A stretch of 61,135 bases of DNA. Source: Escherichia phage Ec1-ASingh. The position numbers were made by a program, and so were the translations under genes. Positions 15,820-49,401 of this stretch are shown piece after piece; the first letter of the stretch is position 1, and the number at the start of each line of letters is the position of its first letter. The notes under the pieces are model-generated. The model was not told the origin of the DNA, ran no database searches, and saw only the letters and a list, made by a program, of their open reading frames with translations. The DNA lies in sequence record PQ561393; one strand, 5' to 3'.

Positions 15820-16010
15820 TTCTTAGCTCCAGGCGGAATTTCACCTTTCCACAGACGGTAGAATATAGGTTTGTTCCTTAATTCCACACAGTCATCACAA
15901 GCTGGGCCCACTTTGTAGCGCGGATGGCCTTTGTGCTCCTGAGCCATCACATTCCAATGCTCTTCTAAGAGGCCCAATTCCCGCCCACAATAAAAACAGC
16001 ACTTACTCAT
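15816..16010 (-). CDS. Small zinc-ribbon protein
   Basis: 64 aa with CxxC...CxxC; ATGA overlap with polymerase start. Confidence 0.45.
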   Translation of the reverse strand: MSKCCFYCGRELGLLEEHWNVMAQEHKGHPRYKVGPACDDCVELRNKPIFYRLWKGEIPPGAKK

Positions 16011-16351
16011 AGCTCACCTTTCCGTTGCAGGTTTAACAGTTTGTCAATCACAATTTGTTTCCCTGCCGCTACACCAGTGTCCAGGATCTCCTGGCGCTCC
16101 TTACCAGTAAGCGCACGAGCTTCGCGACCTGCTTCGTACAATTCTTTATTGTCGCGAAGGTACTTGAGCACCTGCACAATTTCATTCTGAGGTGTATCAA
16201 TCGGCAAATGAAGCATTTCGGTCACTACCTTTTGTAGACCTGCGTATTTTGCGGGTCTAGCAAGCTGCTCACGCAGACGGGCGTTCTCCTGCTCCGCCTG
16301 CGTTGCACGTTTGCGATAGTCGTTCATTCGTCGTGTAAGTTCGTTAATCAT
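16007..16351 (-). CDS. Coiled-coil hypothetical protein
   Basis: Start placed at ATG 16351 (ATGA overlap with upstream stop); ORF track extends to 16453. Confidence 0.4.
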   Translation of the reverse strand: MINELTRRMNDYRKRATQAEQENARLREQLARPAKYAGLQKVVTEMLHLPIDTPQNEIVQVLKYLRDNKELYEAGREARALTGKERQEILDTGVAAGKQIVIDKLLNLQRKGEL

Positions 16352-17340
16352 AACTTGAACCCCGCTATTACCCCGCGCATGTTCTCGCCGTAGAAGATGA
16401 TCGGGGTGTTCATGTTTCGTTCGTCCATCACGTTGTACCGTGATGCGTCCCACTCTGTTGCAATACCTTTAAGCTGCAATAAAAGGTCTATATTGTAAAC
16501 CCCGACTGTCTGATACTCTTTAAACATAGCAGAAGCACCATCCAGCTCAACAAAGTGGGTTCTCGCCAGTGCGTTCTCGATGTATACCTTACCCATCTTG
16601 TCCGCGAACGGTTTGATCTTTTCGAGACAATTAAATAGTTCGCCGTCAATGGGGTACAGCGACTGACCCTTTTCCGTGCGTTCAATGATCGAATCAATGT
16701 TAGGCCACTCCAGAGCTAAGAGCTGGGTACGCAACCAACAGCCGTCCGCATAATGGAACGTCATGCTGTTTTTCGCCGCGCTAATATGCGTAGGCGCTTT
16801 TTTAATGCGCAGAAGCTCTTTAATTGCCATACGAGGAACAACGCAGTCCACAGGGAACACAGCACCGAACCAGTATTGCACGATACTAGCGTTATTGGTT
16901 GCGTACATGCTGCCCGCTTTCACCAGTACGCCGCAAGACCATGGGCGGGACGCATCGTCGCTTATAAACGGCTGTACGCGCTCTAAACCGCCGAGGAACG
17001 CTTCGCCGTTAATTGGGTAGGTTTCACCTTCAGGTTCTACGTGTACAGTGGGCCCGGTTAAGGTGTCCACGCTCACTTTAAACCCTCCAGACTTAATGTT
17101 CAATTTTCCGTTGGCCAGCATAGTCATCTGTACAGCGTCATCACACGCAGCGATAGCTTTAAGCATCGGTTCTGCTTTTGGTGTACAGTCAATCTGGAGG
17201 CCAATAGGTGCGCAGAGTGCAATCGTACCGTTAAACCCGCGAACGTATCCATTCTCGATACGGAAGTGGGTGAGCCCCTCCTGGAGCTCTTTACGGGCGA
17301 TCGAACCCTGCACGAAACGCAGTGCGCCTAGTAAGTCCAT
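16348..17340 (-). CDS. Sliding-clamp-like protein (beta-clamp-like), putative processivity factor
   Basis: 330 aa; pattern similarity to DnaN segments (..SDDASRPWSCGVLV....ATNNASIV..); adjacent to polymerase. Confidence 0.4.
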   Translation of the reverse strand: MDLLGALRFVQGSIARKELQEGLTHFRIENGYVRGFNGTIALCAPIGLQIDCTPKAEPMLKAIAACDDAVQMTMLANGKLNIKSGGFKVSVDTLTGPTVHVEPEGETYPINGEAFLGGLERVQPFISDDASRPWSCGVLVKAGSMYATNNASIVQYWFGAVFPVDCVVPRMAIKELLRIKKAPTHISAAKNSMTFHYADGCWLRTQLLALEWPNIDSIIERTEKGQSLYPIDGELFNCLEKIKPFADKMGKVYIENALARTHFVELDGASAMFKEYQTVGVYNIDLLLQLKGIATEWDASRYNVMDERNMNTPIIFYGENMRGVIAGFKL

Positions 17341-17789
17341 TATTTCACCTCCAGTCGAGCTGGGATAATAAGATCCACTGACCAGCTTGTCAATTCAACT
17401 TCGTTTGGAAGAGTGGGTTCACCCCATACATAATATTTCTTTAAAGGCCATCCCCTTATTGGGTCGAGAATACGGATGTTTCCCTCGAACGTTGATAGCG
17501 CAAGGATAGCGTGAGTCCCACCTTTCATATTAAGTGACGGCGTTGTCAAGATAAAAATCGCATCCCCAAATATTGTATTTTTTCGAGGGTGGCCGTAGCT
17601 GTATGGAATTTTGTATTCGTCCAGAATATCATCATACCACTCGCCTTTATCTCTTTTATAATACAGGCGCTCATGAAACTCATTATAGGCTTGATCCGCG
17701 GACAATCCAACAATCATCCCCATACAAGTAGCCATGCAAGAGTCGGGGGTTGGTTGCATTAAATGCTGCATCATCATTACCTCAATCAA
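17340..17789 (-). CDS. Peptidase C39-like cysteine peptidase domain protein
   Basis: QPTPDSCMATCMGMIVG (Q-x5-C-x3-C-LAM-like) and later HAILAL..ILDP, matching the C39 Gln/Cys/His/Asp arrangement; paralog of 48133..48594. Confidence 0.5.
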   Translation of the reverse strand: MIEVMMMQHLMQPTPDSCMATCMGMIVGLSADQAYNEFHERLYYKRDKGEWYDDILDEYKIPYSYGHPRKNTIFGDAIFILTTPSLNMKGGTHAILALSTFEGNIRILDPIRGWPLKKYYVWGEPTLPNEVELTSWSVDLIIPARLEVK

Positions 17790-18693
17790 ACAAATCGTGG
17801 AGACGCTCGTTGAACCGACCGTTGTGGTTAGCGAGTATCATAGCGTTGACCACACCGTAGGCCCACAGATTAAACGCTGCGCGGCTTTCATATATGGTTG
17901 ACAGGCGCTCGTAAGTGAAACCGTTCTCTTCTAAATATCGGAGAACGTTGTTTTGTTCTGTTTCTGAAAGATTACAAATATGCTGCCCTTGGGCGTGCCT
18001 TGAAGGAGATTTTTCAGAGACCTGCATTGGTCCCCATTTAGGTGTTTCAATAGCGCCGAAAGCGGCTGACTGAATCCAAGAGGATGAGTCGCATGAATAC
18101 CACGGATATCGTTCCATAAGCGGGCGGGAAGTAATCCCAAATCCATGCACTTTGATTTTAGCTCGCCCGCTTCCGTCCACCAAATGTTTATCCCACACTC
18201 TGTCCAACCAAACCTGGAGTTGCTGGGTACTTGCCCCAACCAATCCTCCAAGAGTGATGTAATCGTAATTGGCGACGTAGTGGTCGAGGTACTCGAAGGG
18301 TTCGTTGGCGTGGAAGCAGGGGAGGGGACGCACTCCGCGTAACTCCATCTCTTGCTGGTTTCGCCAAGTCTGTAAGGGGTCTCCGATTCCATCGAGGACT
18401 GACGCCATAAGGTTTCCGTCTTCAACCCGAATAATGTCTCTGTTCCGCTCGATATAGGCGCAGTATTCTTTAACTGAGAGTGTAACTCCGAGGGTAAAAG
18501 CAGAGAATGCTCCGGAATCGAGAAATATTCTTGCCTTGTCCGCTCGCATTGCATCAACATAGGATTGTTGCCCAACGTAGTGCCAGGACTCGAGAATATT
18601 TGGGATATTGCGCACGAGATTTTGTTCATGCTCGGTAAGTTTGACATAACGGTTCATCCCAGGCTTGTAACTGTTTGTGTAAACAGCGGCCAT
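17782..18693 (-). CDS. dpdA: DpdA-like DNA-guanine transglycosylase (TGT family)
   Basis: TGT-like FLDSGAF motif and (beta/alpha)-barrel-like pattern; start at ATG 18693 because a terminator hairpin lies inside the longer ORF-track version. Confidence 0.6.
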   Translation of the reverse strand: MAAVYTNSYKPGMNRYVKLTEHEQNLVRNIPNILESWHYVGQQSYVDAMRADKARIFLDSGAFSAFTLGVTLSVKEYCAYIERNRDIIRVEDGNLMASVLDGIGDPLQTWRNQQEMELRGVRPLPCFHANEPFEYLDHYVANYDYITLGGLVGASTQQLQVWLDRVWDKHLVDGSGRAKIKVHGFGITSRPLMERYPWYSCDSSSWIQSAAFGAIETPKWGPMQVSEKSPSRHAQGQHICNLSETEQNNVLRYLEENGFTYERLSTIYESRAAFNLWAYGVVNAMILANHNGRFNERLHDLFD

Positions 18694-18734
18694 ATAAATT
18701 TGGAAGGTATAATCACATTCAGCTTTGTACACTT

Positions 18735-18772
18735 TTCGCTCCAAACAAAATAAGCGCCCGTAGGCGCTTATT
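18735..18772 (-). terminator. Terminator between folE and dpdA
   Basis: Hairpin aataagcgcc-cgta-ggcgcttatt with U-rich run on minus transcript. Confidence 0.4.
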
Positions 18773-18905
18773 ATAGTACGTTGTGTTATTTGATTGCTAC
18801 ATGAAGCACAGTAACAGAGCGACAAGACTCCACACTGCAATCCAAGTGACCTTTCCACAACGATACGCAGGATTAATAGTCGTGTACTCCACAACGTATT
18901 TCATA

Positions 18906-44889: not shown

Positions 44890-45236
44890 TTGACTTCCTC
44901 CGACCAGCGTTTGCAGTTCTTAAGCAGGCTAATGAATCCAGCCAGTGTGGATGCGGTGCAAGCGATGCGACCGAAAGCTCGAAGCTCGGCAAACACCTTG
45001 CCACTATCCCATACGGTTAACAAAATTTTGTAGCCGTAGCAGTTTACACGGTAGAGAACATAAATGTCGCTCGGGTTAGGGTTAACGCGAGCAACAATGG
45101 CAGTCTTGTGCAGCTTGAACATCCAGGACCCAATGATACGGCGAGTGATAATTGACTGGCTAACGATACTAGACATAATAGTTACCTGTGTGGTTATGCG
45201 GGAGTGCATAATAATGCTCACCGGATAGATGAGCAC
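44886..45236 (-). CDS. Hypothetical early protein
   Basis: GTG start at 45236, alternative ATG at 45209. Confidence 0.4.
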   Translation of the reverse strand: MLIYPVSIIMHSRITTQVTIMSSIVSQSIITRRIIGSWMFKLHKTAIVARVNPNPSDIYVLYRVNCYGYKILLTVWDSGKVFAELRAFGRIACTASTLAGFISLLKNCKRWSEEVK

Positions 45237-46477: not shown

Positions 46478-46486
46478 GAGTGTGGA

Positions 46487-46517
46487 GGGTGTAGGCACGC
46501 TCAGGGTGTAGGTACGC
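46487..46517. repeat. Direct repeat gggtgtagg(c/t)acgc x2
   Basis: 14-bp units at 46487 and 46504. Confidence 0.6.
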
Positions 46518-46519
46518 AA

Positions 46520-47423: not shown

Positions 47424-47798
47424 ATGGGTATCAAAGAAGTTTGGTCTCACGTTAAGACGTTAAGCAGGCCTCAGCGTCAGCTTCTGGTGATTGTACCGAA
47501 CCGTAATTATTTAGCGGAGCTCTGTGCTCAAGCGTTCGATGAATGTGACACTCGGCGTATGGTTCGTCGTGGGTTGCTCGTTGTGCTCATCCGCTATGAG
47601 GATCGAGACATGAAGGTTATGGTGGGCGCTTACCACGGGGAAGAGCTGGTCTGCCGAACCAAAGAGCAGTTAATGGGCCGACGCGACCAGGACGTTGTAA
47701 TCTGCGATCCTGTTAATATGGGTGCCAAGCTCAAGCACGAATTGCAGTGCCTGTCGGCTACCTTCGGGGCTCATTTCAGTGTAGTGGTGGACAAATGA
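47424..47798 (+). CDS. Hypothetical protein
   Basis: 124 aa, RBS GGGGGAA. Confidence 0.5.
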   Translation: MGIKEVWSHVKTLSRPQRQLLVIVPNRNYLAELCAQAFDECDTRRMVRRGLLVVLIRYEDRDMKVMVGAYHGEELVCRTKEQLMGRRDQDVVICDPVNMGAKLKHELQCLSATFGAHFSVVVDK

Positions 47799-48133
47799 AA
47801 GACATCCTTCTTCCTAAGCTGTATACGGCGCTCCGTGATACGTTGCTTCAGGCCGATTGGGTGACTTCCCATAGCAGTCCTGAAGATACGTTTATTGTTC
47901 TGGTGTCGCCGGACAACGTTGTTCGCTGCGTGCTGCACTACATGCCGGAGTGCCAGAACGTGTACCCGAACGGGACGTGGACGCTGAAGCTCAACACGGA
48001 CGAGGGTACATGGGTCGCTGAAACGGCAACCCGTCCTATTGAGACCGACTCAACCTTCTTCATGTCCGACTTCCGACGCTTGCTTTCTATCAGTGTCATC
48101 CTCAAAGACCAAATCAGCAAGGACCCATTTTAA
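47795..48133 (+). CDS. Hypothetical protein
   Basis: Start at ATG 47795 (ATGA overlap). Confidence 0.45.
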   Translation: MKDILLPKLYTALRDTLLQADWVTSHSSPEDTFIVLVSPDNVVRCVLHYMPECQNVYPNGTWTLKLNTDEGTWVAETATRPIETDSTFFMSDFRRLLSISVILKDQISKDPF

Positions 48134-48594
48134 TGCGCAGAATTGTACATCAGACGCAGCCGACCCCGTTGTCGTGCATTGCTACGTGCCTGGCTATGCT
48201 CGTTGGCCGTAAGGCTCATTTCGTCGACCAGGAGTTCACGCAGGATTACGGGCAGCAAAAAGTCGACGTCCCAATGGCCCTGGCTCCGTTTAATATCATG
48301 TGTAAACCACAGCTGGCGGCGGGCGTCCATCAGCTTGCAACGGGGTCGCTGTACCTTGCCACTGTACCGTCGCTCATGAGTGCGGGCCTGTTCCACCAAA
48401 TCATTATCGACACACGGTCTGGAAAGGTTGAAGTCTTCGATCCTGGCCAGGGTGTTAGCAAAACGACGCAGTATTATGTCCCTCCGGAGTCGCCAACGCT
48501 CGACCCGGACAGTCAATTTTATGATCCTTTGGCGTTTCCATTGCGGACGTGGATCTTGGACTATGAACTGGTGATATTGGACGATGCCGACTAA
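48133..48594 (+). CDS. Peptidase C39-like cysteine peptidase domain protein
   Basis: QPTPLSCIATCLAMLVG and HQIIID...VFDPGQG; same Gln/Cys/His/Asp arrangement as C39 bacteriocin-processing peptidase domains; paralog of 17340..17789. Confidence 0.5.
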   Translation: MRRIVHQTQPTPLSCIATCLAMLVGRKAHFVDQEFTQDYGQQKVDVPMALAPFNIMCKPQLAAGVHQLATGSLYLATVPSLMSAGLFHQIIIDTRSGKVEVFDPGQGVSKTTQYYVPPESPTLDPDSQFYDPLAFPLRTWILDYELVILDDAD

Positions 48595-48928
48595 TCATAG
48601 AGTTCCATATTTTACAAGATACGAAGACGCTAAGGCCTACGCCCAGGCCTTAGCGGATCGGTGCAGGACACCCGACCGCACGCGCTATGTCGCACTAGCA
48701 TGGGCGAATCGTTGGGCCGTGGGTACTAAGAAGCAGTTAGAAGATCTCGGCCTGGGGCCGCTGGTGCCGCTGTACAGCCGGCAAAACGTGCGCATGAAGC
48801 AGGAGGAGCAAGCACAGATTTTCGCATACTGGAACCAGTGTGGGAATATTAAAAAGACAGCTACGAAGTTTGGCGTGTCATACGGCAAGGTATATCATAT
48901 CGTTCGTTTAATGAGGAACAAGAAATGA
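48584..48928 (+). CDS. HTH DNA-binding protein
   Basis: C-terminal IKKTATKFGVSYGKVYHIV helix-turn-helix-like segment. Confidence 0.45.
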   Translation: MPTNHRVPYFTRYEDAKAYAQALADRCRTPDRTRYVALAWANRWAVGTKKQLEDLGLGPLVPLYSRQNVRMKQEEQAQIFAYWNQCGNIKKTATKFGVSYGKVYHIVRLMRNKK

Positions 48929-49401
48929 CGGCTATTGCATATCGTGACGGGATTATTGCTGCGGACCGACAGGTTACATGGGGTTCCGTGGCGGGTGTCT
49001 CCAAAAAGATTCATAAAATAAATGTCCATCCTTACGGGCTGTGCCTTGTAGCGATGAGCGGGTTCGTTTACGGTGAAGAAATCATTCTGGACCAGTTGCG
49101 CACCAACAGCTCGGGCAGGGGTGAAAACATCGGTGAAATGCAGCGCGACAGCCGGTACGGCTTCCTGATCACTAAGGAGATGAAAGTTCACGCTATTTAT
49201 GGTGACGGTCGGGTTGGCATGGAAGAGCATCACGAAAACCACTTCATTGCGGAGGGTAGCGCATTTCAGTTCCTGATGGGCGCGATGGCAGCCGGTGCAA
49301 GCGCTCGTGAAGCAGTTGCTCTGGCGTGCGACTACTGCGATTCCTGCGGCCAGGGTATTGATACTATTGACGTTCGTGAGGCGCTGAAAGATGAAGAATG
49401 A
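48925..49401 (+). CDS. HslV/proteasome-beta-like Ntn hydrolase (peptidase T1-like)
   Basis: Met-Thr N-terminus, TAIAYRDGIIAADRQVTWG, SKKIHK, and C-terminal GSAFQ..AAGASAREAVALA..D resembling HslV Thr1/Lys33/GSG/SAREIAEKAL regions. Confidence 0.5.
   Translation: MTAIAYRDGIIAADRQVTWGSVAGVSKKIHKINVHPYGLCLVAMSGFVYGEEIILDQLRTNSSGRGENIGEMQRDSRYGFLITKEMKVHAIYGDGRVGMEEHHENHFIAEGSAFQFLMGAMAAGASAREAVALACDYCDSCGQGIDTIDVREALKDEE

Follow-up and report, generated by a model that had tools for sequence, protein, structure and literature searches.

A predicted C39-like cysteine peptidase gene beside dpdA in Escherichia phage Ec1-ASingh: an apparent horizontally acquired accessory gene

Directly downstream of dpdA, the 7-deazaguanine DNA transglycosylase gene of Escherichia phage Ec1-ASingh, lies a small open reading frame (ORF1) with the motifs of a C39-like cysteine peptidase, and a second frame of the same kind (ORF2) is found elsewhere in the same 61,135-nucleotide (nt) stretch of DNA (sequence record PQ561393; the whole stretch is called the window below). 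A previous sequence-only reading took the two genes for paralogs, regarded the first as coupled to the transglycosylase gene and supposed a dedicated function. The locus raises the question of whether ORF1 belongs with the DNA-modification genes, where it came from and what its product may do. Comparison with phage genomes, metagenomic contigs, protein families and solved structures indicates that ORF1 is a new, horizontally acquired member of a phage protease family that is already annotated and functionally uncharacterised.

The reading frame at 17340..17789 (minus strand, counted from a TTG codon) was present as described, with the motifs QPTPDSCMATCMGMIVG, HAILAL and ILDP, and the gene upstream of it encodes a protein with 91% identity to DpdA as annotated in Nonagvirus FritzHoffmann/Bas20. 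The ORF1 and ORF2 products showed 30% identity over 148 columns (BLASTP, E 1e-12), and both matched PHROG 4049 over their full length, with E-values of 2.9e-38 for ORF1 (residues 5-144 on profile positions 1-140 of 145) and 3.4e-36 for ORF2. Since both matches run end to end, the similarity between the two proteins is far beyond chance; the homology claimed earlier was confirmed, the Gln, Cys, His and Asp positions being aligned in the pairwise and profile alignments. A word-indexed protein search gave only two relatives, and an exhaustive profile search was needed to obtain the family, which comprised 638 cluster representatives (50% identity) at E ≤ 1e-3, nearly all of them single-domain proteins of 135-160 amino acids (aa). 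An informative fused domain was sought in the longer members and none was found. PHROG 4049 members are present in 170 phage records belonging to at least four unrelated lineages, a single one of these records, that of Klebsiella phage vB_Kpn2-P2 (Kpn2-P2), having two copies. The family label is already in use for Salmonella phage SeF6a and Escherichia phage ESCO3, and also in PMC9409062. ORF1 and ORF2 do not differ in kind from the other members; what is unusual in the window is the presence of two copies and the placement of ORF1.

AlphaFold2 models computed with the family alignment reached a predicted local distance difference test score (pLDDT) of 94.7 for ORF1 and 96.4 for ORF2 and share the same order of elements, three helices followed by a beta-sheet. 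The predicted structures have the alpha+beta fold of papain-like enzymes: the Cys starts a helix, the His lies on a beta-strand, and a Gln at the oxyanion hole accompanies a Cys/His/Asp triad at the spacing typical of C39. Foldseek comparison with the PDB returned exclusively papain-like enzymes as top matches, with weak E-values, and the best solved matches were C39 peptidase domains, in agreement with the C39-like assignment of the sequence-only reading. Within an alignment of 118 relatives, Gln8, His89, Asp105 and Pro106 of ORF1 were invariant, and the same picture was obtained with ORF2 as reference; Cys14, Cys18, Ala20 and Met21 were at least 90% conserved (118 relatives, alignment A2), Cys14 being invariant in alignment A4. 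Gln8 and Cys14 align with the Gln and Cys of the C39 domain LahT150 and of the toxin Cpe1, and the spacing (Gln+6=Cys, His+16=Asp) is identical to that of LahT150 in a profile alignment to PDB entry 6mpz that is itself non-significant. Direct alignment of the family profile with LahT150 by hhalign gave E 5.7e-5, with the catalytic residues aligned. When the 118 relatives were scanned individually against Pfam, Peptidase_C39 was matched in 37 (weakly and below threshold, best E 5.6e-5), Peptidase_C39_2 in seven and Peptidase_C58 in six. These results support the prediction that ORF1 and ORF2 are standalone clan-CA peptidases of C39-like fold with an intact Gln-Cys-His-Asp active site, and the two are probably active cysteine proteases. 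As the catalytic Cys is residue 14, ORF1 has no signal peptide and should act in the cytoplasm. Malic enzyme matches, which appeared in the PDB profile searches made with 3 and with 118 sequences, were non-significant and were discarded as spurious, and a PADLOC scan of both proteins returned nothing usable.

Several results weigh against the assignment. Neither ORF1 nor ORF2 matched any Pfam or NCBIfam model, Peptidase_C39 included, even at E ≤ 10, and a sequence-only profile search against the solved C39 structures 9l5u and 6mpz was non-significant (E 0.24-0.93). No canonical double-glycine leader was found in a scan of all stop-to-stop frames of the window, as had been noted before; one partial match, at 44896..44919, has no upstream start codon. 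Nor was a transporter identified in the window, the neighbours being dpdA and the sliding-clamp gene for ORF1, and a gene of PHROG 21152 and a Mor-like gene for ORF2. The papain fold is also that of amidases, deamidases, acyltransferases and lyases, and peptide-bond hydrolysis is a prediction here. The literature searched contained no expression or activity data for any PHROG 4049 member. Since a threshold match to a curated model and a link to a transporter or a leader are both lacking, the proteins are called C39-like rather than members of C39.

The history of ORF1 was read from close relatives of the window phage. The DNA around it is 94% identical to Kpn2-P2 and 92% identical to vB_Kpn_K9PH25C2 (K9PH25C2), of the Queuovirinae, and the window phage and these relatives carry the 7-deazaguanine DNA-modification set FolE, QueD, QueE, Gat-QueC and DpdA. 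ORF1 is missing from K9PH25C2, in which the clamp gene begins 7 nt after dpdA and the DpdA and clamp proteins are 97% and 98.5% identical to those of the window. Alignment of the junctions (TGAGGTATTAATGGAC in K9PH25C2 versus TGAGGTA-ATGATGATG...[ORF1]...GGAGGTGAAATA-ATGGAC in the window) showed ORF1 as a cleanly delimited cassette, about 440 nt long, fitted precisely between the stop codon of dpdA and the start codon of the clamp gene. The dpdA gene of Bas20 also abuts the clamp gene without ORF1 in between, so an insertion in the lineage of the window is the simpler history. Ten carriers of the order dpdA-ORF1-clamp were found (the window, Kpn2-P2, five Logan contigs, two IMG/VR contigs and one JGI contig), and the clamp proteins of all ten backbones are at least 96% identical to that of the window. 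The JGI contig has an additional ORF of 59-75 aa between dpdA and the ORF1 homolog (L009 570..797), and its ORF1 homolog is 78% identical to that of the window, with flanks 97-99.5% identical; the extra ORF and the diverged allele point to the dpdA-clamp junction as a site where small genes are gained or exchanged as cassettes. The guanine-plus-cytosine (GC) content of ORF1 is 43.2%, and 43.8% at third codon positions (GC3), compared with 49.6% for the window and a GC3 of 50-60% for the flanking genes; among segments of its own length ORF1 ranks in the lowest 4%. By these sequence comparisons ORF1 is a recently inserted, horizontally acquired accessory gene. In the GenBank record of Kpn2-P2 the ORF1 homolog (99% identical; L001 7625..8062, PP848851.1 35050..35484) is unannotated, a gap of 441 nt being shown between the clamp gene and dpdA.

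The proposed coupling to the transglycosylase gene was not supported. Adjacency to dpdA is not conserved across phages carrying the 7-deazaguanine pathway, ORF1 being missing at the junction in K9PH25C2 and Bas20, and the pairing that was to be looked for in related phages turned out to be a presence/absence cassette, separated from dpdA by another small ORF in one metagenomic relative. In the Ackermannviridae, the Vequintavirinae and Samunavirus, lineages not known to carry dpdA, PHROG 4049 genes occur in contexts without it. On this comparative evidence ORF1 appears to be neither a partner of dpdA nor a component of the 7-deazaguanine pathway, its adjacency being an accident of insertion, and its position gives no reason to postulate an additional step of 7-deazaguanine DNA modification. 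The literature searched contained nothing specific tying C39 or papain-like proteases to the Queuovirinae, Nonagvirus, Kuttervirus, DpdA or phage counter-defence.

The term paralog was kept in part: homology of ORF1 and ORF2 stands, and duplication within the genome does not. In BLAST comparisons with the family the two proteins rank 156th of 159 and 139th of 158, near the bottom of each other's lists, and an in-genome duplication was rejected on these ranks together with the GC content of ORF1. The nearest phage relatives of ORF1 are not ORF2 but proteins of the Vequintavirinae (Certrevirus DU_PP_I, 46%) and of Klebsiella and Enterobacter myoviruses, and ORF1 is best described, from its sequence relationships, as a xenolog that does not stem from a recent duplication. 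Comparison with Kpn2-P2 revealed 13 synonymous changes and one nonsynonymous change in ORF1, a ratio of nonsynonymous to synonymous substitution rates (dN/dS) of 0.019, and none of the ten carrying genomes or contigs has a disrupted reading frame. A pseudogene or decaying gene was rejected on the dN/dS value, and ORF1 appears to be a working gene under strong purifying selection.

The start of ORF1 is likely to be one of three consecutive ATG codons at 17777, 17774 and 17771, giving a product of 143-145 aa, and not the TTG at 17789. The three ATGs come 2-8 nt after a GAGG which shares bases with the TGA stop codon of dpdA (17784..17782), and metagenome gene calls place the start at the second of them (144 aa). 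At the other end, the stop codon TAA (17342..17340) shares one base with the clamp ATG (TAATG), and the Shine-Dalgarno sequence of the clamp gene, GGAGGTG, sits within the 3' end of ORF1. The GAGG overlap, the TAATG and the internal ribosome-binding site indicate that ORF1 is tightly packed in a dpdA-ORF1-clamp-polymerase string. A near-consensus sigma-70 promoter-like site (TTGACA-17 nt-TATTAT, 11/12 matches) was also seen in the 3' end of ORF1 (17365..17393, minus), about 25 nt upstream of the clamp start; its sequence is the same in relatives 98-99% identical and is degraded to CTCACA/CATTAT in the 78% allele of the JGI contig (L009). With the cassette, the clamp and polymerase genes may have gained a promoter.

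Further features were noted in this operon. The dpdA gene probably starts at the GTG at 18732 (316 aa, as in Bas20 and in metagenome gene calls) and not at the TTG of a 370 aa ORF. Between folE and dpdA, a strong hairpin resembling an intrinsic terminator (18749..18772, minus; 10 bp stem and T run) was found. In relatives the same interval contains a short ORF whose N-terminus resembles that of a lipoprotein (MKFILLVFVVALALYACDD...; Kpn2-P2, L001 9017..9205, and L003 5155..5328); this ORF is absent from the shorter intergenic region of the window (18733..18905). A 114 aa ORF (16007..16351, minus) with weak matches to PHROG 16432 and 10768 (function unknown) separates the clamp gene from a 64 aa ORF that precedes the polymerase gene. 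The window, Kpn2-P2 and the Logan contigs have this 114 aa ORF and K9PH25C2 does not, which makes it a second presence/absence gene of the operon.

ORF2 has a different history. Orthologs with 45-48% identity were found at the corresponding position in 9g, JenK1, JenP1/2, SE1, BRET and Bas phages, and further ones in Seuratvirus, Vid5 and Vibrio siphoviruses of about 59 kb; by this distribution ORF2 is the copy that keeps its position across the Queuovirinae. Between the window and Kpn2-P2 it shows 85% identity (97-99% for the flanking genes) and an overall dN/dS of 0.20. The divergence is concentrated in codons 60-135 (48310..48537), with dS 1.28, dN 0.24 and dN/dS 0.19, compared with dS 0.14-0.29 for the rest of ORF2 and the flanking genes, and K9PH25C2 carries the ORF2 allele of the window. 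Positive selection as the cause of the divergence was rejected on the dS and dN/dS of the tract, which indicate recombination instead; codons 60-135 would be a tract from another allele, covering the His/Asp half of the enzyme. The ORF2 operon encodes two unrelated predicted peptidases, ORF2 and a protein of the HslV family, and the homologous HslV-family region of 9g seems to be split into two frames. Upstream of the operon, in an ORF-poor region of about 0.8 kb between divergent blocks, two tandem 17 nt repeats (AGGGTGTAGGCACGCTC / AGGGTGTAGGTACGCAA) were seen at 46486..46519, which may be a regulatory site. The coordinates of the main features are collected in Table 1.

Table 1. Positions of ORF1, ORF2, their predicted active sites and their neighbours in the window.
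Feature	Position	Strand	Remarks
ORF1, predicted standalone C39-like cysteine peptidase	17340..17777	minus	145 aa, counted from the first of three ATGs
ORF1, N-terminal active-site motif	17736..17756	minus	Gln8 (17756..17754), oxyanion hole; catalytic Cys14 (17738..17736), start of helix 14-23
ORF1, catalytic His89 and Asp105, then Pro106	17463..17513	minus	His89 (17513..17511), Asp105 (17465..17463); invariant columns
dpdA, 7-deazaguanine DNA transglycosylase gene	17782..18732	minus	Immediately upstream of ORF1; 91% identity to Bas20 DpdA
Sliding-clamp (processivity factor) gene of DNA polymerase	16348..17340	minus	Immediately downstream of ORF1
ORF2, second family member	48133..48594	plus	153 aa
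ORF2, predicted active site	Gln9 48157..48159; Cys15 48175..48177; His88 48394..48396; Asp103 48439..48441	plus	
PHROG 21152 gene (function unknown)	47795..48133	plus	112 aa; conserved neighbour, preceding the ORF2-type gene in phage 9g as well
Mor-like late transcriptional activator gene	48584..48928	plus	Downstream of ORF2 in the same gene string
HslV-family peptidase gene	48925..49401	plus	Two genes downstream of ORF2; PHROG 1040 match, E 5.5e-32

The context of the family gene in other phages is varied. Kuttervirus SeF6a (L004 3899..4429) and Agtrevirus Ag3 (L015 2989..3435), from two subfamilies of the Ackermannviridae, carry it between the genes for the large and medium subunits of topoisomerase II, both of which it overlaps. 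It follows the clamp and polymerase genes in Brenneria phage BREN6, and in the Vequintavirinae, Samunavirus and Seuratvirus it lies within long strings of small hypothetical genes. No neighbour gene conserved across these contexts was found.

Taken as a whole, the evidence makes it likely that ORF1 is a working cytoplasmic C39-like peptidase, encoded by a horizontally inserted accessory gene, the target of which is probably a host protein. The Queuovirinae-type copy ORF2, in an operon with the Mor-like activator, would already have been in the window phage when ORF1 arrived horizontally as a cassette at the dpdA-clamp junction. ORF1 would share transcription and translational coupling with the replication genes, and its product would be made with early or middle genes as a cytoplasmic protease. 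The enzyme would cut a protein in the infected cell, most likely one of the host (in takeover or counter-defence) and less likely one of the phage, at small residues, Gly-Gly for instance, and ORF1 and ORF2 would differ in target or specificity. The family is large, has a near-invariant active site and is found in early or replication operons, and a target, once found, would extend phage takeover or counter-defence by a proteolytic mechanism. The window phage and K9PH25C2 form a natural plus/minus pair for ORF1.

That the peptidases instead process a phage protein (a regulator, a replication protein or a virion component, the two copies having two phage substrates) is unlikely. Canonical C39 enzymes process precursors encoded nearby (PMC6363468), ORF1 is embedded in a replication operon, and the neighbours of ORF2 are conserved, with PHROG 21152 upstream (also in 9g) and the Mor-like activator downstream. 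However, none of the ORFs of the window has a double-glycine leader, and the conserved PHROG 21152 neighbour contains no Gly-Gly. ORF1 is dispensable in K9PH25C2 on the same backbone genes, which makes an essential maturation role unlikely, and the neighbours are wholly different between phage families.

A specific form of the host-directed reading, in which the peptidases cleave GyrB/ParE and thereby shut down host DNA transactions, is quite improbable as it stands. Its precedent lies in Cpe1 (PMC12136450) and StbD-CT (bioRxiv 10.64898/2026.05.07.723447), two cytoplasmically acting C39-like peptidases whose cut in GyrB/ParE falls between two Gly residues; the word phage is absent from the first paper and occurs once in the second, and phage homologs are discussed in neither. 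The location of the family gene between topoisomerase II subunit genes in both sampled Ackermannviridae subfamilies would fit such a target, as would the sequence YAGSNFND in the topoisomerase II large subunit of Ag3 at the position of HAGGKFDD in GyrB, the motif at which the C39-like toxins cut. The best PDB match of the family profile, though non-significant, was 9l5u, deposited as a papain-like cysteine protease toxin with its immunity protein, and hhalign gave E 1.2e-4 with the catalytic residues aligned. We take this deposit to be, probably, Cpe1 itself, its link to the Cpe1 paper being unconfirmed. The topoisomerase link is seen, however, in only one phage family, and insertion at gene boundaries is typical of the family gene anyway. 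Single Gly-to-Ser changes leave cleavage by StbD-CT unblocked, which makes the Ag3 difference weak evidence. No annotated topoisomerase was seen in the examined regions of the window and the Queuovirinae (no family scan being run), and a phage without its own enzyme may need host gyrase. More broadly, PHROG 4049 could comprise widespread, unrecognised host-takeover proteases that cut a conserved Gly-Gly site, most attractively in the ATPase lid of GyrB/ParE, the Ackermannviridae pairing the protease with their own resistant topoisomerase II and the window phage having two specificities; we regard this generalisation as a long shot.

It is very unlikely that the papain fold serves a non-proteolytic reaction (of amidase, deamidase, acyltransferase or transglutaminase type) on a small molecule, a modified nucleotide or DNA base, or a protein side chain, by which ORF1 could be linked to DNA hypermodification. 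ORF1 adjoins dpdA, and the Ackermannviridae also hypermodify their own DNA. The best structural and profile matches, however, are true peptidases with identical Gln/Cys/His/Asp spacing, ORF1 is missing from phages with the same deazaguanine gene set, the position-keeping copy ORF2 is far from the modification genes, and the phages that carry the family include ones whose modification systems are unrelated or for which none is known. The idea that ORF1 is decaying, or a purely selfish insert of no use to the phage, as the presence/absence polymorphism, foreign GC content and a junction that collects small genes might suggest, is hardly credible given the strong constraint on ORF1 (13 synonymous versus one nonsynonymous change, dN/dS 0.019), the intact frame in all ten carriers with all catalytic residues kept, and the tight fit of a cassette that supplies the Shine-Dalgarno sequence of the clamp gene.

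Two known groups of enzymes offer a comparison for ORF1 and ORF2. The C39 domains of peptidase-containing ATP-binding cassette (ABC) transporters (PCAT1, LahT150, ComA; MEROPS C39, PF03412) are, like the phage proteins, of about 140 aa, and share the active-site spacing Gln(+6)Cys...His(+16)Asp-Pro. Sequence identity is only 9-16%, and the window proteins fall under every Pfam threshold. Unlike these domains, the phage protein stands alone, neither fused to nor near a transporter, no double-glycine leader is encoded nearby, and its gene belongs to early or replication operons of virulent phages.

Cpe1, delivered by a type VI secretion system, and StbD-CT, of a contact-dependent inhibition system, resemble the phage proteins in being small C39-like domains, and as toxins they attack host proteins while free in the bacterial cytoplasm; their catalytic residues align with those of the phage family. 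They differ in forming the C-terminal part of secreted effectors that also have PAAR-like or entry domains, and in having an immunity gene next to them, whereas the phage proteins have none of these and are single-domain products of 145 and 153 aa with replication or regulatory neighbours. The phage family is no closer to Cpe1 and StbD-CT than to the transporter C39 domains.

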